Source of the DNA: Naegleria gruberi
Taxonomy: Eukaryota
Assembly (NCBI GenBank): GCA_000004985.1
Contig: GG738916.1
Reading direction: 5' to 3' (one strand)
Length of the DNA stretch: 64,000 nt
The notes below the pieces were generated by a model that was not told the DNA's origin, made no database searches, and saw only the letters and a list, made by a program, of their open reading frames with translations. The position numbers were made by a program, and so were the translations under genes. Below, one piece after another: positions 36,170 to 57,686 of this stretch. Every line of letters begins with the position of its first letter. The stretch's first letter is position 1.

Positions 36170-38284
36170 TTACTTTTTAACGAAGAGTTTTTGAAGGGAT
36201 TCTTCATTGTTTTGATACATGACTTTACCTCCAACAATGGTCATCAAAATTTTAGTTTCGCGTGTAATGGAATCTAATGCACTTTCGTCTGTTTCGTCCA
36301 ATTCCAAAATATTTCTCGAAAGTATGGTAATATCACCAAGATATCCCTTCTTTAAGGTTCCCACTTCATGTTCAGTAAAACCTGCATAGGCAGAATTTTG
36401 AGTATAGGCAATGAGTGTTTCCTCAATCGAAATCTTTTCTTCTGGAAGGAATGGTTTACAATTCTTTGGATTCTTTGCTTCATTTCTTCTTTCAACGTGT
36501 AATGGTGAAAGACATGGCTTTCTAGTGACAGCTGCATGGATATTATCGAGAATATCGAGAGGAGCAACAAACCAATCAGTTCCCAGAGCTACCTTAACTC
36601 CCTTATTCAGGAATTTTCTGACATTGTACAATTGTTTTTGTCTTTCTCTTATGATACTTTCAGCGTAGAGTGCATCATCCTTGAGATGGATTGGTTGCAT
36701 GGAGGCAATAATATTGTTCTTTTTGAATCTTTCAATATCTTCCTCTCTAATTTGTTGTGCATGTTCAACTCTGAATCTTCTATCTCTGGTCTTATCATTG
36801 GATTCATTAATGACTCTTTCATAGGTATCCAATAAAATCGAAATTGCTTTATCACCAATGGCATGAACAATCACTTGATGATGATTGGCATCAGCTTCTT
36901 TCACACGTTGATAGAAAACCTCTGGATCAACAACCAATAGACCAGTATTATTTTCAGTACCTTCGAATGGTTCAAACATGTAGGCTGTCTTTGAACCTAA
37001 TGAGCCATCCATAAATTCTTTGAGAGCTCCAATCTTGAACCATTCATCACCAGCTCTGCCTCCACTTTTCTCAGTCCAGCAGCAACTATAGTCGAATTCA
37101 TCATTGAGAATGACATGAGATGATTTTGGCTTACTATATTGATTCTTAATGTACTTTTTCAATTTTTGATGAGTTTCCAATTCAACAGAGGCATAAATTC
37201 TAACTTTGAGTTGTTTCTTTTCGTGAAGTTTTGTGAATGTTTTCACTTGATCCCAACTAGCCAAATTGAATACAGAACCCATGTCGTGCACGGAGGTAAT
37301 ACCATTTCTCAAGATTTCATCCATGGCAAGCTTGGCTGCCTGTTCGTTATCTGTTGGTGGAATAATCTTTTGAATAATGTCCAAAGCCCTATCTCTCAAA
37401 ATACCAGTTGGTTCACCTGTGATTGGATCCAAGTCTACAGAACCACCTGTAATTTGAGTATGTTTGGTAATATTTGCCAATTCCATTGCTTTACTATTCA
37501 CTAAACAGGAGTGACCATCCATTCTGGAAAGATAGACAGGATTACTCGATGTGAATGAATCAATCCAATTCTTGTTAGGTAACTTGGTGCCACCCTCAAT
37601 ATTCCACTCAGTTTCAGACCATTCAGCACCTGTAATCCATTCTCCTGCCTTGACACTTCTCTCCTCTATGAATTTCCTAACAGCACCAATAAATTCATCC
37701 TTACTCTTTGCATTTCTCAATTGAACTCCGAGCATTGATTTTCCACCCAAAATTACGTGTGCATGTGAATCGATAAATCCAGGAACTATCAATGGAGTAT
37801 TAACTTCATCACTCGATTTTTGTTTAAAATCCAAAACTGTTTCAGCCATTGATGTTGTAAATCGTGACAATATGTCACTATTACTTCCAATAGCAATAAT
37901 CCTTCCAGTATCCTTATGGACAGCAAGAGCTTCAGCCCACTTGATTGGAATATTCTTTTCTCCCTTTGTTCTTGATGCTTTTGGCACATTTTCCAATTTC
38001 ATTCGATCGCCTGTCCAAATTCTAGCATTTAATATCATGAGGGAAAGGGTTTTTTCATTGCCATTCTGCTGTGATTGACTACCAATCCAATTACTTTTAA
38101 ATACAACATAATACAAGGCAAAGGAAATGATGACGGAAACAATCGGACCGAAATTGTGTAGAAAGGTGGCAATCCTCTTTCTCTTATCACGAGTTTCTTC
38201 ATCAATTAATTCATCGTCCTGTTCTTGTTGCTTCTCCAAAGAAGATTTTTCCTCCTGCATTTTCTTATTTGTTGATTTGGACAT
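36170..38284 (-). CDS. Metal-dependent amidohydrolase (Amidohydro_3 / YtcJ-like) with N-terminal TM extension
   Basis: True ATG at 38282-38284. N-terminal TM FLHNFGPIVSVIISFALYYVVF. Metal-binding HxH block GFIDSHAHVILGG. Later conserved blocks VIVHAIGDKA, HAQQI and LGTDWFVAPLD are typical of the amidohydrolase TIM barrel. Confidence 0.6.
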   Translation of the reverse strand: MSKSTNKKMQEEKSSLEKQQEQDDELIDEETRDKRKRIATFLHNFGPIVSVIISFALYYVVFKSNWIGSQSQQNGNEKTLSLMILNARIWTGDRMKLENVPKASRTKGEKNIPIKWAEALAVHKDTGRIIAIGSNSDILSRFTTSMAETVLDFKQKSSDEVNTPLIVPGFIDSHAHVILGGKSMLGVQLRNAKSKDEFIGAVRKFIEERSVKAGEWITGAEWSETEWNIEGGTKLPNKNWIDSFTSSNPVYLSRMDGHSCLVNSKAMELANITKHTQITGGSVDLDPITGEPTGILRDRALDIIQKIIPPTDNEQAAKLAMDEILRNGITSVHDMGSVFNLASWDQVKTFTKLHEKKQLKVRIYASVELETHQKLKKYIKNQYSKPKSSHVILNDEFDYSCCWTEKSGGRAGDEWFKIGALKEFMDGSLGSKTAYMFEPFEGTENNTGLLVVDPEVFYQRVKEADANHHQVIVHAIGDKAISILLDTYERVINESNDKTRDRRFRVEHAQQIREEDIERFKKNNIIASMQPIHLKDDALYAESIIRERQKQLYNVRKFLNKGVKVALGTDWFVAPLDILDNIHAAVTRKPCLSPLHVERRNEAKNPKNCKPFLPEEKISIEETLIAYTQNSAYAGFTEHEVGTLKKGYLGDITILSRNILELDETDESALDSITRETKILMTIVGGKVMYQNNEESLQKLFVKK

Positions 38285-40361: not shown

Positions 40362-42464
40362 ATGAAAAATAATTCGCACGACCATCAACATCATCATCAC
40401 GAAGGATGCTCGCACGATCATCATCATCACCACGATGAGAATTGTACTCATGATCATGACCATCAACATCATCATCATGAAGGATGTTCGCATGATCATC
40501 ATCACCATGACGAAAATTGTTCTCATGAACATCATCATCATCACGATGAGAATTGTAGTCATGATCACGACCATGACCATCATCATCATGAAGGTTGCTC
40601 CCACGATCACGGACATCATCATCATCACCATCATGAAGGCTGTAATCATGATCACGATCATGGACATCACCATCATGAAATTCAAATTTTACCATACGCC
40701 AATGAAAAGAATAATAAGAAACATGTCAAAACCTTCTCCCCACTCATGTTGGCATGTTTACAGAATGATACAGCAACAGCATTGTCGCTTTCATCACCAG
40801 AAACAGTCAATGATAGATCAATTGATAATTTCACTGCTCTTCATTTTGCCATGATGAATGGTAATATCGCTCTAGTAGAAAGATTAGTAAAGGATGGTGC
40901 TAGACTTGATAAACGTACTATTACACATGATGGTATGACTCCTCTCATATTTGCTATCAAGGAAAGCCACTATGAATGTGTTAAAAAGTTTTTGGAATGT
41001 GCTAAATTAAAGTTGGAAGAAAATAGTGAATTACAAGAAGGTAAACTCACTATTCAAAAACTTGTCAACCAAGGAAACTTATTAGGAGAAACTCCACTTC
41101 ATCACGTCTGTAAATTGTTTATGCAAATCCCACATGCTCTCCATTTAGCTACCATTCTTATCGATTATGGAGCAAATGTAAATGCCACAGCTGTAGGTCT
41201 TTTAAAGGAGACTCCTCTTTTATATTTTGCTCGTTCCGTTCCTCCTGAAAGTGTCCTTCCAATGATGCAAAATGTTTCTCCCCACGTTTCTGCCCAATTT
41301 AAGAAATTTACTCAACTTTTCGAAACTCACAAGGCAACTTGTATCGAAGAACCAGCACCTGAAACTCCACTCTTACTTTTGGGAACTACTATACCGAAAG
41401 TTATTGTCCCTCCAGGTGTTCCTTCTCAATTATATGCCAACCATAGAGATAGTGCTAACAGAAAGTTGGAAACTGATTACGGAGGTGCCTATTGGAGTTA
41501 TGGCTGTATTGAACCATTCTACCATGGTAAGAAACCAAGAGTTAACATGGCTGTTGATGTCTACATTCCATTCACCAAACCACAAAAAGGTCTTACTGCT
41601 ACCACATTTAATGGATTCATTCATACTATTAATTATGCCAATCCAGAAAAGCCATCCAGAAGATATGAAGATATGGTTGATTTGGAAACTGGTAAGCGTT
41701 TGTCATTTGTTGCTACTTGTACTTTGAATATGAATCATGAGAAATTATCGGATATCTTCCCATCTCAAATGGAAGTCACTATTGAATGGAATCCAGAACA
41801 TAGCAGACATAATCCATGGGTTGTCACCAGAATTTTCGAACATTCTGATGAAAGTAACTCACTTCTTCAATTGGCTCAAGCTGCTTTTGTTTATGAACTT
41901 GAAAATGGTAGATCTGTACTTCCAAACTCAAAGCCACGTCGTTGTACCATGATCAAAGGATTGGAAGATCAACACGGCTCACATAACCACAAGATTCCTG
42001 CTCGTCTTCTTCTTGGAGTTGAAATGTTTAGTCCATATAAGTTTGTTGCTTTCAAATATGCTCCTGATGAATATGATAGTGAAGCTGATGTTCAGCTTAC
42101 TGATGAAACTGGTTTCAACAACATGTTAGGTCAATTAGTTCAAACAAGTGCCGAATTATTGAGACGAGGAAAACCACAATTGGATATCAAAATTGATGGA
42201 AAACTTTTGAATGTGAAAGAAATGATTGAAAATCAATTAAAGAAGAGAATGGAAAAAACTCTCAAAGCCACCCCACCAGCTGTCCAAGAAAAACCAAAAA
42301 CTCCAACTGTTGACAAGTGTGCCAACTGCAACAAGACAGGAACCAAGTCAGCACCTTTGAAGAGATGTTCAGGTTGCCAAAAAGTTTTCTATTGCTCTGG
42401 AAATTGTCAAAAGACACATTGGAGCTCCCACAAGACCGCATGTAAAAAATCAGTAACCAAATAA
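40362..42464 (+). CDS. His-rich / ankyrin-repeat / MYND zinc-finger protein
   Basis: N-terminal ~110 aa of (H)n-E-G/N-C-S/T-H-D-H repeats. Ankyrin repeats (TALHFAMMNGNIALVERLVKDGARLD, GMTPLIFAIKESHYECVKKFLE, GETPLHHVCK, ALHLATILIDYGANVNA). C-terminal MYND finger CANCNKTGTKSAPLKRCSGCQKVFYCSGNCQKTHWSSHKTAC. Confidence 0.6.
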   Translation: MKNNSHDHQHHHHEGCSHDHHHHHDENCTHDHDHQHHHHEGCSHDHHHHDENCSHEHHHHHDENCSHDHDHDHHHHEGCSHDHGHHHHHHHEGCNHDHDHGHHHHEIQILPYANEKNNKKHVKTFSPLMLACLQNDTATALSLSSPETVNDRSIDNFTALHFAMMNGNIALVERLVKDGARLDKRTITHDGMTPLIFAIKESHYECVKKFLECAKLKLEENSELQEGKLTIQKLVNQGNLLGETPLHHVCKLFMQIPHALHLATILIDYGANVNATAVGLLKETPLLYFARSVPPESVLPMMQNVSPHVSAQFKKFTQLFETHKATCIEEPAPETPLLLLGTTIPKVIVPPGVPSQLYANHRDSANRKLETDYGGAYWSYGCIEPFYHGKKPRVNMAVDVYIPFTKPQKGLTATTFNGFIHTINYANPEKPSRRYEDMVDLETGKRLSFVATCTLNMNHEKLSDIFPSQMEVTIEWNPEHSRHNPWVVTRIFEHSDESNSLLQLAQAAFVYELENGRSVLPNSKPRRCTMIKGLEDQHGSHNHKIPARLLLGVEMFSPYKFVAFKYAPDEYDSEADVQLTDETGFNNMLGQLVQTSAELLRRGKPQLDIKIDGKLLNVKEMIENQLKKRMEKTLKATPPAVQEKPKTPTVDKCANCNKTGTKSAPLKRCSGCQKVFYCSGNCQKTHWSSHKTACKKSVTK

Positions 42465-42557: not shown

Positions 42558-43451
42558 ATGGACGAAGATGTGGAATGGTTCTTGTCGTTGCAAAAATTGG
42601 GATTTTCCAACGAACAAATTGTGGACATGTGGAAGGAAAAGAATAAAGAAGCAATTAGCGAAAATCAAAACAAACAAAAGAAACGAAAAATTGAATTATG
42701 TTTGCACAGTTGTGAGGAAGAACAAATTGGACACAAATTTAATTTTCTGAGTGATGAAGCAATCGGAGTGGTGTTTGCGTTTGTGAATGAGAATTTCTGT
42801 GCATTCCGATTAATGTTGGTGAGTAAACAGTTCGAAAGAGTGGTTGTTTCGTCCATTAAAATATTAAATCTCAATAAGAAGGCAATTCCCAAGATTCCCC
42901 AATTGATAAATTCAAATTTGTGTGAGCCAATTGAGAGATTAATTGTCCACACAGAATTGGAACATTCATTACTGCAACAATTAGTTCACAAATGTGTAAA
43001 TATCAAACATTTAACTGCATCTATTCGAAAGCCACCATTTAACATTTCATTTACGAGTCCAACCATTCAGGAAATTAACATAATAGATGTGCGAGAAACC
43101 AAACCAAAGGTACATTTCGCAAGTGAGAATCTGGAATATTATCCACAACCACAGATACCAAATCCACAACCTAAACCATTGATTCGAACAGATTTATCAG
43201 AATCTAAGATTTTATTGATAAAAAAGTTTGTGGATAATACAATTTTGAAGGATTGCAATCTTGCAAATGAGGAAAACAAAGCTAGAATTCTCAGATGCAT
43301 GATGACCATACCAAATGAGCTAGACGAAACAGAAGAAACATTTCTAATTCATGAGGAAAGAGTTGGAAATGAACTGCATCAAATTTACTTTAATTTCAAA
43401 TATAGCAATTGCAAATGGACTAAAATTTTACAGAAAGAACACATGATTTAA
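42558..43451 (+). CDS. Hypothetical F-box-like protein (297 aa)
   Basis: F-box-like LSDEAIGVVFAFVNENFCAFRLMLVSKQFERVV. No other domains recognised. Confidence 0.3.
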   Translation: MDEDVEWFLSLQKLGFSNEQIVDMWKEKNKEAISENQNKQKKRKIELCLHSCEEEQIGHKFNFLSDEAIGVVFAFVNENFCAFRLMLVSKQFERVVVSSIKILNLNKKAIPKIPQLINSNLCEPIERLIVHTELEHSLLQQLVHKCVNIKHLTASIRKPPFNISFTSPTIQEINIIDVRETKPKVHFASENLEYYPQPQIPNPQPKPLIRTDLSESKILLIKKFVDNTILKDCNLANEENKARILRCMMTIPNELDETEETFLIHEERVGNELHQIYFNFKYSNCKWTKILQKEHMI

Positions 43452-43540: not shown

Positions 43541-46500
43541 TTATTGAGTCTGCTTAAACATGGCCAGTTGTTTGTAAACTTTGAGCTTTGTTTGCTCATT
43601 TTCAATTAAACCAACAATCCAAGAAGAAACAGGAATGCTAAAAGCTCTCAAAATTCTTCTAGTCAACAATGCGATATTCAACACTGTAAATCTCTTAATG
43701 AGTCTTCTTGTTGGAGAAACAATTAACAACATTTCAAAGCAATAACCAATAGCCAAATGTGACAATGAATAAATTACTATCCTCAACTTGTAATAGAGTG
43801 GAAAATTAATCAAGCTTATTGCCTGTTTCAATAAATCAGTAGGTATGAAAAGTAAATAAGCTGTTGCCAAATAAATAATGATAATGAAAAGTGTAAAGGT
43901 AACTAATTGGAAATATTAACATCAAACTATTCTTATAATAAACTTACAATTGTTTGTAATGATTGGCAACTTGAATGGTTTTGAAATACTCATACAAATA
44001 GAAATATTGATAATACAGAATGTACACACAAAGAACATTATTGTCGTCTCATAGGAACGCAATAAATCATTCTTATAGTACATAAAGTTTGTGTTAATGG
44101 TTGGAGAGAACCATGGCTCACGCATAATTTCAGTCCAAACATGGAAAATGAAAGCAGAAGCAAGGAGAACGTGACCACCAAGGGAAAGGAAAATAAATCT
44201 GGAAATGAGGGTTGTTGGTGGTTTTTCTCTTTTCAGAGCTAAACTTGCATCAGTTCTCGTCATTAACAAGGTTGTTGGCATGACTACAATTAAATCAATA
44301 AATAAAAATTGAAAATCCACAAAATTACAATTTCTAGAGAGTAAGACAACAATTGTCATGATTTGAACAATAGAATAGAGGGCAATGAATTTGAAAATTT
44401 GGAAAAAGGTAAGTAAGCTTGCTCTACCTTCACGAATAACTGTAACCATTGAACCGACAGTTGGTTTCAAACTAGTGAATGGTGCTGCGACTGATATTTC
44501 TTCTGAAAGGGAAATACCAACATGGGCCGATCTGAGAGCACCCAAATCGTTGGCACCATCTCCAATCATACCTACGTCATATCCCATTTTTTGAAGTTCT
44601 GTCACTAGGGTTTTCTTATGATTAGGCGAAAATCTGGCATAAATATTGCATGATGTAAGAATGATATGAAGTAGAGAAGGTCTCTTAGTGTTAATGTATG
44701 GCTCTCTTCTGGTTTTCTTTACGAATAATCGATGTTCATTGTGTACATATTCAAACACCTCCCCAACAACTACAATGTCAATATTACGCAACTTGAGCAG
44801 CTCTTCTGTAGTAATTACTTGTCCACTCTCTGTTTGTCTCCACATGATATTCTGAATATAATCCACATTGGAGACTATTTCTCTCTTCAATTCACTCAAG
44901 TAACAATCCTTCTTTTTTTCAATAACTTTTGACTTTCTGGCAACATTTATGGAAGTGTATGCATTGTCACCACTACAAATGATGCACTTGATATTACAGT
45001 CCAATAATGTTTTGATGGATTTTGAAGTTCCTTTCTTTACCTTGTTTTCTACCAAGAGTAGACCAATAAATTCCATTTCTGATTCTACATATTCTCTTGG
45101 AAGGGTTTCCAACTCGGATAAAGTGAGATTGCTTGGTAATGTTTTACTGGCCAGTGCCATAACTCGATAGCCCTTCTGAGCATAACATTTCAACATGTCA
45201 GAGTAATTTGGAGGAATTGAGGATGGTTTAGAAATGGACTTGACAGATTCAGCACTACCTTTAGCAAATGCGTGTAAATTTCCAGTTGCATTATTCTTAA
45301 TTACTACAGACATTCTCTGAACTGAGCTCTTGAAATCAAAAACATTCAATTTAGAATAGGATTTCTCAACCTTCTGATCTGTTGACTCAAAGAATATTGT
45401 ATGACCATAAGCTGACTCGGAAATATCTTGCATGGACCACTTGCTAGTCTGGAATAATTTAGAATCCAAAGGATCACCAATAAAAGTTGTACCAACTCTA
45501 CTAAGATTGTTACAACATGCCAAACATTGAACCAATGTGCTATTAGAAGCAAATAATTTCGAAATGTTAGTTCCCTTGACATATGGATGAAAGAGACCTT
45601 CAACGGATGGGAAAATTCCATGAACATCTATTTCATTCTCGGTTATTGTGTTGGTCTTGTCAAAAACTGCAATTTTGACATATCCAGGAAGGTTAACTCG
45701 TAATGGTGAAGTACACAAAATCTTCCTCTTTCCCAATCTTCTCATAGTAAATGTTATTGTTGTTGTCATGGCCAATGGCAGGGTAGGAGGCACACTAATA
45801 GTGATAATATCTAGAATGTGTAAAAAGACATTTCCAGCTGGTGCTCCCAATTTGAATAGATTTGCAGCTGTTCCAATAATTCCAATAAATCCAGTCACTA
45901 CTAATACAATTAAGAATTTGAGAGAATCTCTATAAACATTAAACTCTGCAGTCTTTGGGAATAGAATTGATAAGAGTAATTTTCCTTTCAGAGTATTGAA
46001 TCCTGTTTGACTCACAATACCAAAGCATTTGTTTGCGAATAGACTGTTAGGAGAAGGTTTGGCTGTCAAAACTTGCGTTCCAGAAAATATTGTGTGATTA
46101 TTCTCTCTAGAAGGGTAATATAACTTGGCGTCATCATAGGGCAGTGGCCTCTTCTTGACTGGAATACTGTCACCTGTTAATTTTGATTCATTAACAATAA
46201 CTTGACCACCCAACAAAATAACATCACAAGGCAATGTCATACCATCAGTAATTTCAATAATATCTCCAGGGAATAAATCGAGAGAGTCCATTTCTTCCTC
46301 CTCTTCATTTCTCTTACTAGCATTCTCTTCTGAATAGATTGTTCTATTATATTTAGATGGTGCTCTCAGTGCAAGTCTATTTACAAAGCAATGATTCGAA
46401 GTCAAGTCCTTCAATTTTTTCAAATTATCATATGTTCTCCAAAAACTGAATGATATAACTATCAGAGTAACTATTGCTATTGAAATGCAATAAGTGTAAT

Positions 46501-47875
46501 ATTGTTCCAAAAACCAAAGCACAAGGATGAATACTTGGAAAAGGTAGAATGGATGTAAAATTTCATCTAATAGAATTTGTACTCCTGATTTCATTGGAAT
46601 TTCCGTAGAATTTTTACCAAATAGTAACTCTCTCAATTCTCTTTCATTTTCTGCTTCCTTTTCAGCCATTTTGTGAATTTTAGAAAATGGAATACATGTG
46701 TTAAATCTAACCCTGTGAAAACTATCCGTCACAGGATCATATATAAATACTAGAAATCTATATACAAAATATCGCACCATGATAGGTTCAAACGAAACTC
46801 TCAAATCCGAATCAAAATTCCTCACAAATCCTTTCTTAATTTTTACAATCGTCCACTGGTTTGTCTCCTTCGCCTTGATTAATACCTTTGAAGCATCAGC
46901 AAAGGAGTGACCATTGTTACTACTATACGAATAGGTCATGTATGATTTGAGCCATTTTAGCCACCGACAGCAAACCAACAATGAACCAGCACTCGCAACT
47001 ACACACAACCAAAACAATACTTCCAAGTAGAATTGATGCCTCAGTCCTTTTATCGAGGCAATTTCATGAACATACTTGCTTTGATTATCCAAATATTCTT
47101 CCTCTGGAGCATGTGAAAAATCCGAATCATCGTCAGGATCTTCAAAATGGAGTGAGAGGGAAGTTCTATGGAAGTGTGTATTTGGTTGAGTGGAAAATGA
47201 GAGTGGTGAGGAAGGATTTTGTTCGTCGTCATCAGAATGTGCAACAATTGGCTCATCCACATGTAACTGTTGTTGATGAGAAGCAGCTGCTCCTGGTGGC
47301 ACTGTAGCTTGTTGATGATGTGGTTTTTGCCTACTAGTAAGTGTGGAACTTCCCGATGATGTATACTCATTCAAAATTGCTTGCAAACTTGTTGATTGTT
47401 GCTTCTTGATGTGATGATGATGACTAAACTTATTCAATGAATAACTACTATTACTCGGACTAATTGGTGTTGGAGGATTTAAAGTGGGTGGAGAGTAGGA
47501 AACATTATAGTCTTCAATGAGAACCTCCTCCATATTACTACTACTATTATCATTGTCCACATGTTGGCGATGATTTGAATTATTAGTGAAGGAAGATAGT
47601 GAGTGAGGAATGATAACACTCACACTCTCCAAATCATCCAGACTACCACTACTACTACCCATATTCATATTCATATTATTATTTTGTTCTTCATCATTAT
47701 GAAACCTTTCATCTTCATCTATTGTTGATAATGTCGATTCATTCATCATTGCACTCTCGGAATCTACTCTAAATAAATTATTGTTGTTATTATTATTATC
47801 TTTGTTGTCGTTGTTATTATCAATGGCCAATTGATGAAGAGAATCATCCGAGCCTACAACATTACTATTCTTCAT
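43541..47875 (-). CDS. P5-type (P5B-like) P-type ATPase: complement(join(43541..43902,43948..47875))
   Basis: Actuator motif LTGDSIPV. M4 motif VPPTLPLAMT (PPxxP). Phosphorylation-site block FDKTNTITENE (DKTGT variant). Hinge MIGDGANDLGALRSAHVGISL. About 290-aa Asn/Ser/Gln-rich N-terminal extension. A 45-nt GTAAGT..TTAG intron in phase 1 joins the main ORF to the downstream 109-aa ORF, which encodes the last TM helices. Confidence 0.65.
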
Positions 47876-48232: not shown

Positions 48233-48859
48233 TTATTGATTTTGACAAGTGGATTCTGGAACTGGGAATGAAAAATCAGAGGCACTTGATTGTCCCATAA
48301 TATTAAAAGTAGTAATTAAAGTTGGTTGACCATCTCCAATAATCTTGTACATTTGGAGTGGAAGTTGGAAAGCTCCAGTATGATTAGTATTGATATAATA
48401 ATCGATCACCATATTGGTAACAACTTTGTTATCATATCTATCACAAGTTCCAATTTTTTGAGTCATGATATTCAAGCAATTATTAACAATTCCAGTATAT
48501 TGCATTCCAGAAATAATGGCAGATCTCAATGGATCCATAGCCAAATTATGCATTCCAGCATTTTTACGTCTAGTACAAGTCCACTTTCCATTTGAATATT
48601 CAGTAAAGGCATAGAAAGTATCAACAGATTGAACATAGAAATAGGATTCATGGAAACCTTGTGGAGTAACAACTTTATGAGAGAAGAGACCCTTGTTATG
48701 ATTGGCAGCAACTTGAGTTTGGAAAATCTTGTTCTTTACATAATCATTTTGGATCATGGTGTAATCGTCAGGTAAATACAAAGATGGATCGGAGGAAACT
48801 ACTCCGATGATGATCATCAGTGTGATGAAGAGAATGATGGAAGCTTTGCTTGTTTGCAT
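48233..48859 (-). CDS. Hypothetical secreted protein (208 aa)
   Basis: Clear signal peptide MQTSKASIILFITLMIIIGVVSS. Four Cys. No recognised domain. Confidence 0.35.
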   Translation of the reverse strand: MQTSKASIILFITLMIIIGVVSSDPSLYLPDDYTMIQNDYVKNKIFQTQVAANHNKGLFSHKVVTPQGFHESYFYVQSVDTFYAFTEYSNGKWTCTRRKNAGMHNLAMDPLRSAIISGMQYTGIVNNCLNIMTQKIGTCDRYDNKVVTNMVIDYYINTNHTGAFQLPLQMYKIIGDGQPTLITTFNIMGQSSASDFSFPVPESTCQNQ

Positions 48860-49683: not shown

Positions 49684-51384
49684 CTAATTCTGATTTTCTC
49701 TCAAGAATCTTGAAATATCCGAATTGGCTTGAGTCAAACGATGCATTACATCAGATAAATCCTGAATACAATGCAATTCCAATCCATCAAATAGAGTGGA
49801 GGGTAAATTCTCATCTCCACACTTTTCAATTTCAATCATTAGGTCAGAACGTGCTTTCTCAATGGATGCCATATTCAATTCAAGAGGAGAATTCAAAGAA
49901 ATATAATTATCAATAATAAATTTGGCAATTTCCTTTCGATTTTTGACTTGTTGTGGAGATTTGTATCTTTGAATATCTTGCCAACAAAGTACAGGTTCAG
50001 GACAATAGGATCTTCTCGCAAAATCCAATAAAATATTGAATGTCTTTCTGTTTTTCAGAACTAGCTCTGCACCACTTATCACTTCCTTTTTTGATTCCTC
50101 TACTGAAACTGATTTCAAATTATTCCAAGCAATTTTCAATTCCTGATTGAGTTCATAACAAACAGGCAATAGTACACACACAACAGTCTCCAAAGAAAGT
50201 GCTGTGCACATAAAGAGCAAATAGGGCACATAATAATCGATCAATGATCCAACAATTGGTATAAAACCAGCTACAATAAAAGCTCCCATTCCAATCGATT
50301 GAATCACCACATAAATCAATGATTCCTTCTTAATATTCCATGTATCTCTATCTGATCTGATACATAAAATCAATGTAAATACCTCCATGGCAATATAAAT
50401 AATTGCCTCTGTCAAGATTATTCCAAGAATACTACTAGTCATGATACATCCATAACCAGACTCAAAGAAACCAGCTGGAATGAGAGCTCTTTTTGCTGAA
50501 GGATCTGTTTTCTTATTGATTGTGTAGACAATTTCATCAATTCCACCAACAATGGCCCATAAAATAGTTTGAAATACGAAAACTCCCAAATAAACCAAAA
50601 TGACGAAAGAGTGACTGCCCATAAATTGGAAGAATTTCATTTTCCTCAGTTCTTTCATTGGAATTTCAATCTCACGATTGGAAATGGATTCTTTTGCATC
50701 TATGAAAACAACTTCATTAGTACTGGTTGAGGATTGTAAACTTGTTGGTGTGTCCAGTGGTGTATCCACAGGTGTGGCTGATTTTGGAGATGAAGAAGTG
50801 GTTGAAATTGAAGAATGAAACAATTCTTGATGTGGCATTCTAATAGTTGATGGTAATTCCTTTTCGTCTACATTACTCTGCTCATCCAAATGTCCATAAA
50901 GTTTCGTCTTTTGTAAATTAAACTTGTACATGAAATACAACTTTAAACATCGACAAATTGTCGGCAAACAAATCACAGGTCCAGTTACAAAGAAACACCA
51001 AGAATAAAGCGAACAAGGAAATTGCTTTCGTCCAATAATTATTCGAAGGCAAAATATTGCCACAAAGAATAAACCTGAAAACATGGTCAAGAAGAGATGT
51101 GATAAATTTCTCGCAACAACATGTCCTGAATTTCTCTTCCACAAAATCAATATCGAAGTGACAACCAATAAGCTTACATATAATATTAGAAAGGTCAACA
51201 CGACACCAAACGAAACTGTTGTATCAGGACAAATATCGTAATCTTGATTGGGATTGGCTTCTCGGCTGTATGGTGTTGTGAAGAGTGTTGGATCGCAAAA
51301 AGTTGAATTATTGCTGCTCGACGAGTTATTCGATTGTGATTCGTATAGAATGTGAAGAATCGAATAAAAGAGTTGATCTGTCAT
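49684..51384 (-). CDS. Seven-transmembrane receptor-like protein with C-terminal RGS domain (second in window)
   Basis: N-terminal glycosylation-rich segment, seven hydrophobic helices, then KTFNILLDFARRSYCPEPVLCWQDIQRYK...AKFIIDNYISLNSPLELNMASIEKARSDLM, which matches the RGS fold consensus. Confidence 0.5.
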   Translation of the reverse strand: MTDQLFYSILHILYESQSNNSSSSNNSTFCDPTLFTTPYSREANPNQDYDICPDTTVSFGVVLTFLILYVSLLVVTSILILWKRNSGHVVARNLSHLFLTMFSGLFFVAIFCLRIIIGRKQFPCSLYSWCFFVTGPVICLPTICRCLKLYFMYKFNLQKTKLYGHLDEQSNVDEKELPSTIRMPHQELFHSSISTTSSSPKSATPVDTPLDTPTSLQSSTSTNEVVFIDAKESISNREIEIPMKELRKMKFFQFMGSHSFVILVYLGVFVFQTILWAIVGGIDEIVYTINKKTDPSAKRALIPAGFFESGYGCIMTSSILGIILTEAIIYIAMEVFTLILCIRSDRDTWNIKKESLIYVVIQSIGMGAFIVAGFIPIVGSLIDYYVPYLLFMCTALSLETVVCVLLPVCYELNQELKIAWNNLKSVSVEESKKEVISGAELVLKNRKTFNILLDFARRSYCPEPVLCWQDIQRYKSPQQVKNRKEIAKFIIDNYISLNSPLELNMASIEKARSDLMIEIEKCGDENLPSTLFDGLELHCIQDLSDVMHRLTQANSDISRFLRENQN

Positions 51385-54437: not shown

Positions 54438-57400
54438 TTAAAAGAGAGGATAATTTAGAAGGTTCGATCTCTCGCAAACAATCTCGGGAGGTGTCTTATT
54501 CATTCTAGATCTGTAGACCTCCCTTAGATCGTCAATACTTGAAACACCTGTAAAAGTTGTTGTAACTCTAGGTACAAAATACAATCTCAATCGTTTTAGT
54601 TTTTGAAGTTGAATGACAAAATTGAGTAGACTTTGATAGGACAAGTCTTTTGTTCCTCTTCCAAAAATTTCAACATCTCTCAATTCTGTACATTTTTCTT
54701 CCAATCTTTCGAAAAAGTCTCTGGTTGGATTGTTACCATCCAATTCAATGTAGAGTGAATTCAATTTGTGATAACATCGCAAGGTATCCAATAATTCTGG
54801 AATTTCTTCATTGGAAAATTTGTAGTTGTGAATGTGGAAAGATTTGAGGTTGTGACATAACCTCTCGCTTGCGGTAAATTCATTCTTCCAATCCAAAGCT
54901 TTGATATTTACAGGTTTGTCAATTATTAAACATGTTAAACTGTGGGAATGATACTCGTAAATGGTCTTTAAAATAGAAAGACTGAAGAATTGAGAATTGT
55001 TCTTCAGAATAATATGGGAAAGTGAGGGAGGGAAAAATAGGGTAGTTCTAGGTTTTCTGGAGGATAGAGAAGTGTCGGAACGAGATTTTGGTATGATATT
55101 AATTTCACTCGTGCTAATGCTGGAATCGGATGATTTCTTGGAAAGTGTTGGGTTGTTAAATTTTCCACTGGCTGCTTTAAATAATTTGATAAAACTTGCC
55201 TCGATTTCATCTATTGGAACAGCATCATTCTTTTGGTTGGAAACAGTAATGGATCTCAAACTAGGGAAGGAAAAGAGTGTAAACAGGATATTGAATATAG
55301 TGGCCGAAGTTTTGTTAAATGTCAAACTCTGAACTTTGAAACATCTCAAAAGCTTTTCATTATTAATTAATGTAAAGTCATTAGATTGAACTTGATTAAT
55401 TTCGGAAGACTCGACAAGTGTCATGAAGGTATGTACTGATGGAGTTCCACTGGAAATGTGATCAGACAATGAAAAACTCTTCAACGATTTCCTAAATAAA
55501 TATAAAATTTGTGCAATTAAAGTATCAGATATGGAGCAGTTAGAAATCTCCAAATATTCCAAAATATGGGAACTGGTGAGTAAGTTGAAACATTTTGGAT
55601 TGAGAGTGTTATCTATTTTTTTGGTTGTAATATTTGTCATTTTCAGATTTCTTAGAGAAGGACAAATGGCCAATGTTTCAATCAGAGTGGTTTCATCGCT
55701 GATCATGTAGTGGTCAATTGTCAATTTGGATAATTTTTCGAATTTTCCTTGAGGGAACCCTAAGAATGCATAGTCTAGTATGGCCTTTTCACAAGTTGAC
55801 AATAGATAAACCTCTCTCAATGATTTGGTATGATGTCGTAAGATCTTTAGCACACCAGATGTGACATCAACTGAGCCGTTCTGAGTGTGACGGAAGTATT
55901 GGAGAGTATTTTTACATCCCAGCACGAAAGATTGATCAGCCAATCCTCCAGAAAGTATAAATGACCAATCAGTTGCTGCTCCATGATCTACAGTGGAAAG
56001 TCGTGTTAACATTGGAAATAGTACAATAGGATTAGAGCACGTCTGCTTCTTGAGATACTGCAACAATTGTTGGAATAGTGTATCAGATTCAGTACTGGCC
56101 TTATGTTGATAAAAATCTATTGATTGAAGATGAGAACTCTTGAGCCTGTTCAAGAATTTTTCAATGACTTGACTTTCGTTGGAGAGGGAGTGAAAAAGCT
56201 TGGAAGCAAGTTTGGATGTATTTCCAACCACAACGCCACTACTCAGGTTCATAGGTAGTGTGGATATTGCTCCGTTAAATGAAATTGATTTGAGTTTTGG
56301 AAAGTCTTGAATAATATCTACTTGATCCAAAAATCCATGTGGCACCAATCCTCCAATTGTGAGATGAGTCAATCCCTTTTTCAAATGCTCCAAAGGTTGC
56401 AGAGAGTCAATTGTATTACTTCCAGTAGTTACTCCATCAAATACTACCTTTAAGGAAACCAGTGAGGTTGTTAATTTCAATAGAGAATTTAGCTCTCCTT
56501 TCTTTTTTGGTAAGTAATTGAGAAGATTCAGCTCTCTAATTCTAGGAAGTAAGCTTTCAAAGTTTAAAAGATTCAGATTTTGATCTTCAACATTTGGGCT
56601 GGTATTGATGGTTATCTCTGGGTCCTGACCTGTTGCCATTAGTTTGGAAAAAAAGCTACTCGATGCTGTTTTCAAATTTGGGAAAATCGAGTCAAAAGCA
56701 AAGGTTTTCGTAAAAGTCAAACTTAAACGAGTAATATTCTTAAAAATTCCAATTTGAATCAAACTCTTTCTAAAGCTACTAATAACACTATCCACTAGAA
56801 TTTCATCTCCAAAATATCTCAAATCAAAAGTATTAAAATCAATCAAATATTGTTGAATTCCGAGTTCATTAGCCATATCCATATCCAAAGAAATTTTCTT
56901 ATCCATGAAATCAAACTTTGAAAGGTACTGTGTGAATTCATTGTGTGCAGAGTTTGTTCTGACCATTCTTGGAGTATTCGCTTCTGACCTTGGCGTGGTT
57001 ACACTAGTTGGAGTATCTCTACCTCTTGGTGTGATGGTTTGAGAACGAGATTGTTTAGTCGGTGTGGAGGGAACTGACTTTTTCTTATCTTCCCCATTCC
57101 TAGCCATTTCCACAAGTGTTTGAATCAGGAATTGAAATGTTGATTTTTTCAATCGGTTCTTTAATGATTTTCCATCACTCATACCATTGATTATACTCGT
57201 ATTGTTACTATTGTGTTGATGATTACTAGGTGTATTGGATGATGATGACAATGACGAAGATGACACATTAATAGAATTATCAATAGCATATTCCAATCCA
57301 CCTCCCACAATGTACAAAGTTACCAGAACTGATAACCACTTACTCGACAAGATCTCCTTCATCAATGTCTTATCATCCATGAATGACATGATTTGATAGT

Positions 57401-57686
57401 GAATTTCCAGAGGAAGTTTGGAAAATAAATTTCTAAACCTAACAACGGCCTGGCTCGCATTGATATTAACCAATCCAGGTGTATGTTCTCTACTCGATGG
57501 TAGAATCTTCCGAATTGGAGAATCAGCATTAAAATCCCTGAAAAAGTCATCATATAAATTTTGTAGTGAATTGTTGAAAATTATGGTTTTTGATGAGGAG
57601 TCATCTTGATGATTCGGATGTTGATGACCATTCTTTTGATCTATTGTAGAAGATAAATCTTTCCTATTATTATTATTATTTTGCAT
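54438..57686 (-). CDS. F-box / LRR protein with Asn-rich N-terminus (1082 aa)
   Basis: F-box LPLEIHYQIMSFMDDKTLMKEILSSKWLSV. LRR-type repeats throughout (LRNLKMTNI, LEYLEISNCSISD, LRSITVSN). Confidence 0.45.
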   Translation of the reverse strand: MQNNNNNRKDLSSTIDQKNGHQHPNHQDDSSSKTIIFNNSLQNLYDDFFRDFNADSPIRKILPSSREHTPGLVNINASQAVVRFRNLFSKLPLEIHYQIMSFMDDKTLMKEILSSKWLSVLVTLYIVGGGLEYAIDNSINVSSSSLSSSSNTPSNHQHNSNNTSIINGMSDGKSLKNRLKKSTFQFLIQTLVEMARNGEDKKKSVPSTPTKQSRSQTITPRGRDTPTSVTTPRSEANTPRMVRTNSAHNEFTQYLSKFDFMDKKISLDMDMANELGIQQYLIDFNTFDLRYFGDEILVDSVISSFRKSLIQIGIFKNITRLSLTFTKTFAFDSIFPNLKTASSSFFSKLMATGQDPEITINTSPNVEDQNLNLLNFESLLPRIRELNLLNYLPKKKGELNSLLKLTTSLVSLKVVFDGVTTGSNTIDSLQPLEHLKKGLTHLTIGGLVPHGFLDQVDIIQDFPKLKSISFNGAISTLPMNLSSGVVVGNTSKLASKLFHSLSNESQVIEKFLNRLKSSHLQSIDFYQHKASTESDTLFQQLLQYLKKQTCSNPIVLFPMLTRLSTVDHGAATDWSFILSGGLADQSFVLGCKNTLQYFRHTQNGSVDVTSGVLKILRHHTKSLREVYLLSTCEKAILDYAFLGFPQGKFEKLSKLTIDHYMISDETTLIETLAICPSLRNLKMTNITTKKIDNTLNPKCFNLLTSSHILEYLEISNCSISDTLIAQILYLFRKSLKSFSLSDHISSGTPSVHTFMTLVESSEINQVQSNDFTLINNEKLLRCFKVQSLTFNKTSATIFNILFTLFSFPSLRSITVSNQKNDAVPIDEIEASFIKLFKAASGKFNNPTLSKKSSDSSISTSEINIIPKSRSDTSLSSRKPRTTLFFPPSLSHIILKNNSQFFSLSILKTIYEYHSHSLTCLIIDKPVNIKALDWKNEFTASERLCHNLKSFHIHNYKFSNEEIPELLDTLRCYHKLNSLYIELDGNNPTRDFFERLEEKCTELRDVEIFGRGTKDLSYQSLLNFVIQLQKLKRLRLYFVPRVTTTFTGVSSIDDLREVYRSRMNKTPPEIVCERSNLLNYPLF

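Follow-up and report, generated by a model that had tools for sequence, protein, structure and literature searches.

The 64,000-nt stretch of AT-rich eukaryotic DNA analyzed here (GC content ~0.30–0.37; hereafter the window), taken from contig GG738916.1 of Naegleria gruberi, carries at positions 43541-47875 of its minus strand a gene for a P5B-type ATPase, i.e., a member of the ATP13A2/Ypk9 polyamine-transporter class. The encoded protein departs from its family at two catalytic loops, as its phosphorylation motif reads DKTNT in place of DKTGT and its dephosphorylation motif reads TGDS in place of TGES. The gene comprises two exons separated by a 45-nt GT..AG intron and codes for a product of 1429 amino acids (aa). 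The uninterrupted open reading frame (ORF) spans 43922-47875 on the minus strand (1317 codons) and ends at an in-frame stop directly after ...PIITNN. Splicing of the intron (43903..43947, minus strand; GTAAG...TTAG, phase 1, with an in-frame TGA) joins exon 1 (43948..47875, minus strand; codons 1-1309 and the first base of codon 1310) to exon 2 (43541..43902, minus strand), which supplies the last ~120 codons, encoding M9, M10, and the C-terminal tail, and the TAA stop. The spliced product is identical at every residue to the N. gruberi protein XP_002670383.1/EFC37639.1 (UniProt D2VZW0), whose database name is “cation translocating P-type ATPase”; both the gene and its model are thus already in the databases, with a generic annotation. 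The splice has independent support, because the intron lies at the identical codon and in the same phase in the orthologues of Naegleria fowleri (69 nt) and of a metagenomic Naegleria-like contig, L002 (40 nt), and because the alignment of the spliced C-terminus with M9 of human ATP13A2 continues across the exon junction. Exon 2 is further backed by hydropathy and by its conservation in the orthologues. The original prediction for this locus, made by a model from the DNA letters and a list of their ORFs, had called for such a 45-nt intron to recover the last ~120 codons, and the match with the NCBI protein bears this out.

The same prediction spoke of a P5-type ATPase, an assignment that alignment with ATP13A2 and the fold search now narrow to P5B. 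In a Pfam scan, the E1-E2_ATPase, Cation_ATPase, and haloacid dehalogenase (HAD) Hydrolase domains score above cut-off, and the P5-ATPase N-terminal domain (PF12409) gives a match below cut-off (17 vs 22.7 bits); hydropathy places a hydrophobic segment at aa 284-302, and the beta-rich N-terminal domain receives a confident model that can be superposed on ATP13A2. The best matches of a sequence search of the PDB are human ATP13A2 (E-value 1e-151, over the actuator (A), phosphorylation (P), nucleotide-binding (N), and membrane (M) domains) and the fungal P5B Ypk9, with the P5A pumps (~1e-71; Spf1, 2e-71) and SERCA (~1e-27) behind them. An AlphaFold2 (AF2) model of residues 268-1429, built on a 37-sequence alignment (mean predicted local distance difference test score, 83; predicted template modelling score, 0.82), has the E1-ATP-like structures of ATP13A2 as its closest matches in Foldseek (template modelling scores 0.80/0.90). 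The top 16 matches are all P5Bs and, while the Foldseek probability is 1.00 to P5B, P5A, and P2 pumps, ATP13A2 comes ahead of P5A and P2. The hydropathy profile of the 1429-aa protein shows an N-terminal hydrophobic hairpin segment and 10 transmembrane segments, the arrangement of human ATP13A2/ATP13A3 and fungal Ypk9 (PDB 7N70, 7M5V, 7VPI, 7OP1), to which the protein is homologous over its full length and which provide its best fold match. It differs from them by an identity of only ~29-37% and by a 268-aa low-complexity N-terminal extension. In a neighbour-joining tree (951 trimmed columns, 200 bootstrap replicates), it nests among heterolobosean P5Bs.

When the protein is aligned with ATP13A2 by HMMER, six of its motifs fall exactly opposite TGES, VPPALP, DKTGTLT, KGSPE, TGDN, and GDGAND, so that no canonical DKTGT is concealed elsewhere and the DKTNT site is the true site. 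The phosphorylation motif DKTNTIT (aa 739-745; 45641..45661, minus strand, as are all motifs below) is read from the DNA as GACAAGACCAACACAATAACC = GAC AAG ACC AAC ACA ATA ACC and stands opposite the canonical DKTGTLT; D739 is the predicted phospho-Asp, and N742 (AAC, 45650-45652) takes the place of the invariant Gly. Against the strict signature D-K-T-G-T-[LIVM]-[TIS], this is the single mismatch, the Asp, the Lys, and both Thr being present. The A-domain dephosphorylation motif TGDS (aa 567-570; 46166..46177), read as ACAGGTGACAGT = ACA GGT GAC AGT, has Asp (D569, codon GAC) at the position of the Glu of the canonical TGES. The hinge motif GDGAND (aa 1105-1110; 44546..44563) has both Asp intact and is followed by LGALR instead of the canonical CGALK. 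Both substitutions, together with the intact Asp and GDGxND hinge, had been pointed out in the original prediction, whose Asn codon, given there as aat, is AAC in the DNA. It had also listed the Ile of DKTNTIT as a deviation from Leu, which is unremarkable: the PROSITE pattern for P-type ATPases permits [LIVM] after DKTGT, and a canonical N. gruberi paralogue has DKTGTIT.

The remaining motifs show smaller departures. The N-domain ATP-binding motif is KGSAE (aa 872-876; 45248..45262) for the canonical KGSPE/KGAPE, a Pro to Ala/Ser change common to the whole clade of DKTNT proteins described below; the P-domain motif is SGDN (aa 968-971; 44963..44974) for TGDN; and the M4 motif is PPTLP (VPPTLP, aa 695-700; 45776..45790) for the P5B signature PPALP/VPPALP. 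The phospho-Asp, the Lys of KGxxE (K872), the Asp of TGDN, GDGAND, and K1087 are all present, the first four as in ATP13A2/Ypk9, and the motif changes (E to D, T to S, N to S) all preserve chemical character. DKTGT is described as a signature motif and the Glu of the phosphatase motif as a feature of “all pumps” in a 2023 review (PMC10654040). The M4 motif of P5Bs, given as VPPALP in one paper (PMC8233418), is termed “invariant” in another (PMC5856429). Among relatives of the N. gruberi protein, PPSLP is found in N. fowleri and PPALP in L002 and in the Willaertia orthologues/paralogues, and other P5B matches likewise include forms such as PPTLP, PPSLP, PPELP, and PPGLP.

The residues predicted from sequence to line the polyamine pocket are kept in the N. 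gruberi protein. Spermine is contacted in ATP13A2 by W251, D254, D463, D960, F963, and D967 (PMC8564547). The equivalents are W454 and E457 in the M2 segment LVLWFLEQYY (46496..46525), D689 just upstream of the M4 motif, and D1187, F1190, and D1194 in the M6 segment VDFQFLFIDL (44291..44320). These contacts are conserved or conservatively changed, and each of the states seen is also found in canonical P5Bs.

The Asn of DKTNT is inherited. The closest relative of the protein (P0002, 64% identity) is encoded on a contig, L001, whose spliced product matches N. fowleri FDP41_006673/XP_044558776.1 at 1315/1316 residues and has DKTNTLT and TGDS; the L002 orthologue (60% identity) has DKTNTLT and NGDS. 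The two orthologues thus share DKTNT, the check that the original prediction had proposed. Across the three species, the codons of the motif (GAC AAG ACC AAC ACA, GAC AAA ACA AAC ACC, and GAT AAG ACA AAT ACT) show synonymous differences. Over the core of the three orthologues, the non-synonymous divergence (dN) is 0.27-0.32, and synonymous sites are saturated (proportion of synonymous differences, pS, ~0.75). Since dN lies far below the saturated synonymous divergence (dS) and the DKTNT codons differ only synonymously between species, the comparison indicates that the protein, Asn included, is under purifying selection. That the motif might be an artefact, whether of a misread or misassembled Gly codon, a wrong gene model, or a decaying pseudogene, is suggested by nothing beyond its rarity, and we regard it as extremely improbable. 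A change from GGN (Gly) to AAY (Asn) requires two substitutions, and DKTNT is present in four independent sources, namely the assemblies of N. fowleri, Naegleria lovaniensis, and Willaertia magna and the metagenome, which led us to reject a base-calling or assembly error. A pseudogene was rejected on the grounds of an ORF intact over 1429 codons, a conserved intron, and dN far below dS.

The distribution of DKTNT was established by searching 1.84 billion cluster representatives exhaustively with HMMER and following up with cluster look-ups, from which clade membership is taken here. A word-indexed protein search proved lossy, missing clade members (P0121-P0130) that outscore the matches it listed; run with a trimmed profile, it returned no further clade members and missed some known ones; when the clade alignment was left untrimmed, low-complexity words flooded the profile search, which returned 6 proteins. 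Among 319 retrieved P5B proteins, 302 have DKTGT, 10 have DKTNT, and 7 are fragments. Two apparent further variants, “DKTHT” (N. gruberi P0126) and “DKTTT” (P0261), were artefacts of the regular expression, the true sites being DKTNT and DKTGT, respectively. In a canonical comparison set of 71 diverse P5Bs (mutually <50% identical), the Gly of DKTGT and the Glu of TGES are each present in 71/71. Besides the three orthologues, DKTNT is found in N. gruberi EFC43379.1, N. lovaniensis XP_044541831.1 and XP_044546425.1, and W. magna KAL9656868.1, KAL9641557.1, and KAL9655984.1; the Gly column is occupied by Asn in 9/9 of these clade proteins.

In the neighbour-joining tree, the nine DKTNT proteins are monophyletic in 200/200 replicates and contain three internal lineages, each also recovered in 200/200: lineage A (the gene at 43541-47875, N. 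fowleri, and L002), lineage B (N. lovaniensis and Willaertia), and lineage C (N. gruberi, N. lovaniensis, and Willaertia). A fourth Willaertia protein groups with lineage A in just 103/200 replicates. All these proteins share DKTNT and KGS(A/S)E, and (T/N)GDS is limited to the Naegleria lineage of the gene at 43541-47875, whereas the sister paralogues, Willaertia included, keep TGES. Beyond what the original prediction had noticed, the Asn is thus the hallmark of an entire subfamily specific to Naegleria and Willaertia with at least three paralogue lineages. N. gruberi itself has at least three P5B genes, i.e., the DKTNT/TGDS gene studied here, the DKTNT/TGES gene EFC43379.1 (P0126), and the canonical EFC46951.1 (XP_002679695.1; P0266), so that the paralogue status suggested by the original prediction holds; the altered catalysis that it also proposed is conjectural. 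EFC46951.1, from the same genome and family, differs by its motifs DKTGTIT, TGES, KGSPE, and TGDN and lies outside the DKTNT clade, where it groups with canonical P5Bs of Percolomonas, Acrasis, and environmental sequences. Both EFC43379.1 and EFC46951.1 are annotated only as “predicted protein, partial.” Outside the clade, a P5B of Coemansia javaensis (KAJ2779084.1; P0263) also has DKTNTLT, combined with TGEC, KGAPE, and TGDS (for TGDN). Because it groups with fungal P5Bs in 200/200 replicates, its Gly to Asn change is of independent origin, found so far in a single species.

Much of the catalytic core has been preserved in the clade: among the 71 canonical P5Bs, 98 columns reach 95% conservation or more, and the clade retains 90 of them. 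Invariant in 9/9 are D739, K740, T741, T743, K872 (ATP site), D970 (TGDN), K1087, D1106, and D1110. The derived states common to the clade are G742N, P875A/S, the loss of the Gly after AMTV in M4, the replacement of the Cys after GDGAND, and a Phe for the Met of ARMSP, to which lineage A adds E569D, T567N in L002, TGDN to SGDN/SGDS, and a change of the GALK Lys to R or Q. The simplest history that would account for this distribution has four steps: the duplication of a canonical P5B, of which the canonical copy is still kept, a single Gly to Asn change in the common ancestor of Naegleria and Willaertia, additional duplications, and a Glu to Asp change in TGES confined to the Naegleria branch of lineage A.

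How the P domain might accommodate Asn is suggested by another member of the HAD fold. The sucrose-phosphatase of Synechocystis (PDB 1S2O), an active HAD phosphatase, shares the P-domain fold core and has DLDNT at the equivalent motif, with Asn likewise three residues after the nucleophilic Asp, from which we infer that HAD-fold aspartyl-phosphate chemistry tolerates Asn at this position. It differs in being a soluble phosphatase and no pump, and in carrying a second Asp at the position of the P-type ATPase Thr. The possibility that Asn substitutes for a left-handed (positive-phi) Gly was considered and found unsupported, as the AF2 model shows K740-I744 as a single helical turn directly behind the strand that ends at D739. 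Any constraint at position 742 would more likely arise from the way it packs against the nucleotide or the loop of the A domain. A literature search on mutagenesis of the SERCA loop Gly found nothing on a Gly to Asn variant.

Taken together, these observations are probably best explained by a working P5B pump with altered kinetics, belonging to a Naegleria/Willaertia paralogue subfamily in which Gly was exchanged for Asn once after duplication, and Glu for Asp later in Naegleria. Such a pump would still bind ATP and be phosphorylated at D739, and its E1/E2 cycle would remain coupled to a pocket for polyamine-like cations in M2/M4/M6; the E1P to E2P transition, dephosphorylation, or both would be slower and the phosphoenzyme longer-lived, with possible compensation by co-evolved changes such as KGSAE. 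The conservation pattern points to retained phosphoenzyme chemistry rather than its loss: formation of the aspartyl-phosphate and cycling are likely retained because the nucleophile and the phosphate, Mg, and ATP ligands have been kept across three old paralogue lineages. Several observations weigh against this reading. Changes of the DKTGT Gly and the TGES Glu are damaging in other P-type pumps, given that G1030S and G1030D, at the DKTGT Gly of ATP7B, are listed Wilson-disease variants (PMC11536366, PMC9262453) and that SERCA E183D, which carries TGDS, displays no significant Ca2+ uptake (PMC2268108). In addition, the M4 motif PPTLP of N. gruberi departs from the PPALP signature, lineage A lies ~30% further from outgroup P5Bs than EFC46951.1 (1.36 vs 1.04), and the drift in further motif residues of lineage A resembles an early relaxation of catalytic constraint. 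The comparisons with mutants have their differences, too. SERCA1a E183D shows the identical Glu to Asp exchange in its A-domain motif and is an engineered single mutant of a P2A Ca2+ pump, whereas the natural Naegleria protein had long co-evolution for compensation; moreover, the mutant still forms E2P and hydrolyzes it about one third (~1/3) as fast as the wild type, with an E1P to E2P transition <10% of wild type (PMC2268108). Likewise, the ATP7B variants affect the same Gly and are catalogued as pathogenic variants of a P1B copper pump, whereas Asn is fixed and conserved in the Naegleria lineage. A stepwise change from Gly (GGY) to Asn (AAY) can pass only through Ser or Asp, and because both are listed disease variants in ATP7B, the path to Asn was probably opened by the canonical back-up copy.

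The same mutants also lend themselves to another explanation, in which the DKTNT paralogues lack productive turnover, being, for example, trapped in one phospho-state or not phosphorylated at all, and are kept for a non-transport role such as sensing polyamines or lipids, scaffolding, or regulation of the canonical P5B. Two residues invariant in 71/71 canonical P5Bs are changed, a canonical paralogue is available for the housekeeping function, lineage A combines its extra drift in TGES, TGDN, and GALK with moderately faster evolution, and catalytically dead regulatory paralogues are known in trypanosomatid polyamine metabolism (PMC3663545, PMC5201418). Pseudoenzymes, however, usually lose their nucleophile or metal ligands, and here all phosphate, Mg, and ATP ligands are invariant, 90/98 conserved columns are kept, and the membrane substrate pocket is intact. 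Furthermore, P5B pumps act as monomers, and we know of no precedent among them for a partner role of the kind played by a prozyme. We thus consider such a loss of pumping unlikely. Quite unlikely, in our view, is an explanation based on cargo, according to which the protein would cycle normally, its substrate having shifted from spermine/spermidine to another organic cation or a lipid-like molecule, with the catalytic-motif changes as neutral passengers. It would fit PPTLP/PPSLP in M4 and the change of AMTVG to AMTTT in the clade, the Glu found at the D254 equivalent in 7/8 clade members covering the position (Ile in the other), the Asn at the D960 equivalent in three clade members, and the retention of three paralogue lineages, which suggests sub-functionalization. 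The pocket variants nevertheless also occur in canonical P5Bs (E in 17/71, N in 6/71, Y in 18/71), the Trp, D689, and D1194 are kept, and a neutral passenger would leave the 9/9 invariance of Asn after the change unexplained. A bolder proposal, which we hold to be rather doubtful, is that the DKTNT proteins form a natural class of P5Bs with a re-tuned cycle, having either a long-lived or conditionally trapped phosphoenzyme or a non-cycling role as polyamine/lipid sensor or regulator. If true, this would be the first conserved P-type ATPase lineage to operate with the Gly of DKTGT missing and, in the case of Naegleria, the Glu of TGES as well, and would offer a natural system for studying the roles of two “invariant” residues.

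A full-text literature search found no paper on DKTNT in a P-type ATPase, on these accessions, or on Naegleria P5B pumps. While the annotated gene was already known, what is new is a P5B subfamily restricted to one lineage, in which Asn is fixed in place of Gly in the phosphorylation loop and, in Naegleria, Asp replaces Glu in the dephosphorylation loop. Asn has been retained for Gly in three paralogue families and no fewer than four species, and Asp for Glu across Naegleria, with purifying selection still acting on all other catalytic and substrate-pocket residues. This amounts to a natural mutagenesis experiment that predicts the Gly of the DKTGT loop to be chemically dispensable and that also offers compensating backgrounds for the E to D change that cripples SERCA. 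The presence of an orthologue in the lethal pathogen N. fowleri adds some interest, as polyamine handling is a plausible vulnerability there. For now, the finding is of modest practical value and leaves accepted mechanisms standing.

Upstream of the conserved core, aa 1-268 (47072..47875, minus strand) form a low-complexity, probably disordered extension, as judged from its composition and from the lack of conservation of its length and sequence among the orthologues. The original prediction had described ~290 residues rich in N, S, and Q; the low complexity stands, and the extension before the first hydrophobic segment measures ~268-283 aa and is enriched in Ser (17%), Asn (12%), Asp (8.5%), and His (7%), not strongly in Gln. 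An Asn-rich run, DNNNDNKDNNNNNNN (aa 19-33; 47777..47821, minus strand), is encoded by a short (AAT)n-like tract, the only feature that tandem-repeat and tRNA scans of the ATPase locus returned. Two islands within the extension, unlike the rest of it, are conserved in N. gruberi, N. fowleri, and the metagenomic orthologue: PPTPISP (aa 134-140; 47456..47476, minus strand; consensus PPTP[IL]SP) and KKQQSTSLQAILNEY (aa 157-171; 47363..47407, minus strand; consensus KKQxxTxLQAI[LI]NEY), the LQxIxxxY of the latter being also part of the DKTNT clade consensus. The extension would thus be a disordered tail bearing two short islands that may, as a speculation by analogy with the N-terminus of Ypk9, be regulatory or auto-inhibitory.

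The genes adjoining the ATPase showed no functional link with it. Additional N. gruberi ORFs lie between the genes syntenic with N. fowleri at 42558-43451, 48233-48859, and 49684-51384. The last of these, a 566-aa ORF on the minus strand, has an RGS domain in the domain scan, and its diphtheria-toxin T domain match, below cut-off (22.5 vs 27 bits), is probably spurious. Microsynteny with the N. fowleri contig L001 extends over both sides of the gene, as the ATPase is flanked in both species by an amidohydrolase (window 36170-38284), an Ank/zf-MYND protein (40362-42464), and a 1082-aa ORF (54438-57686).

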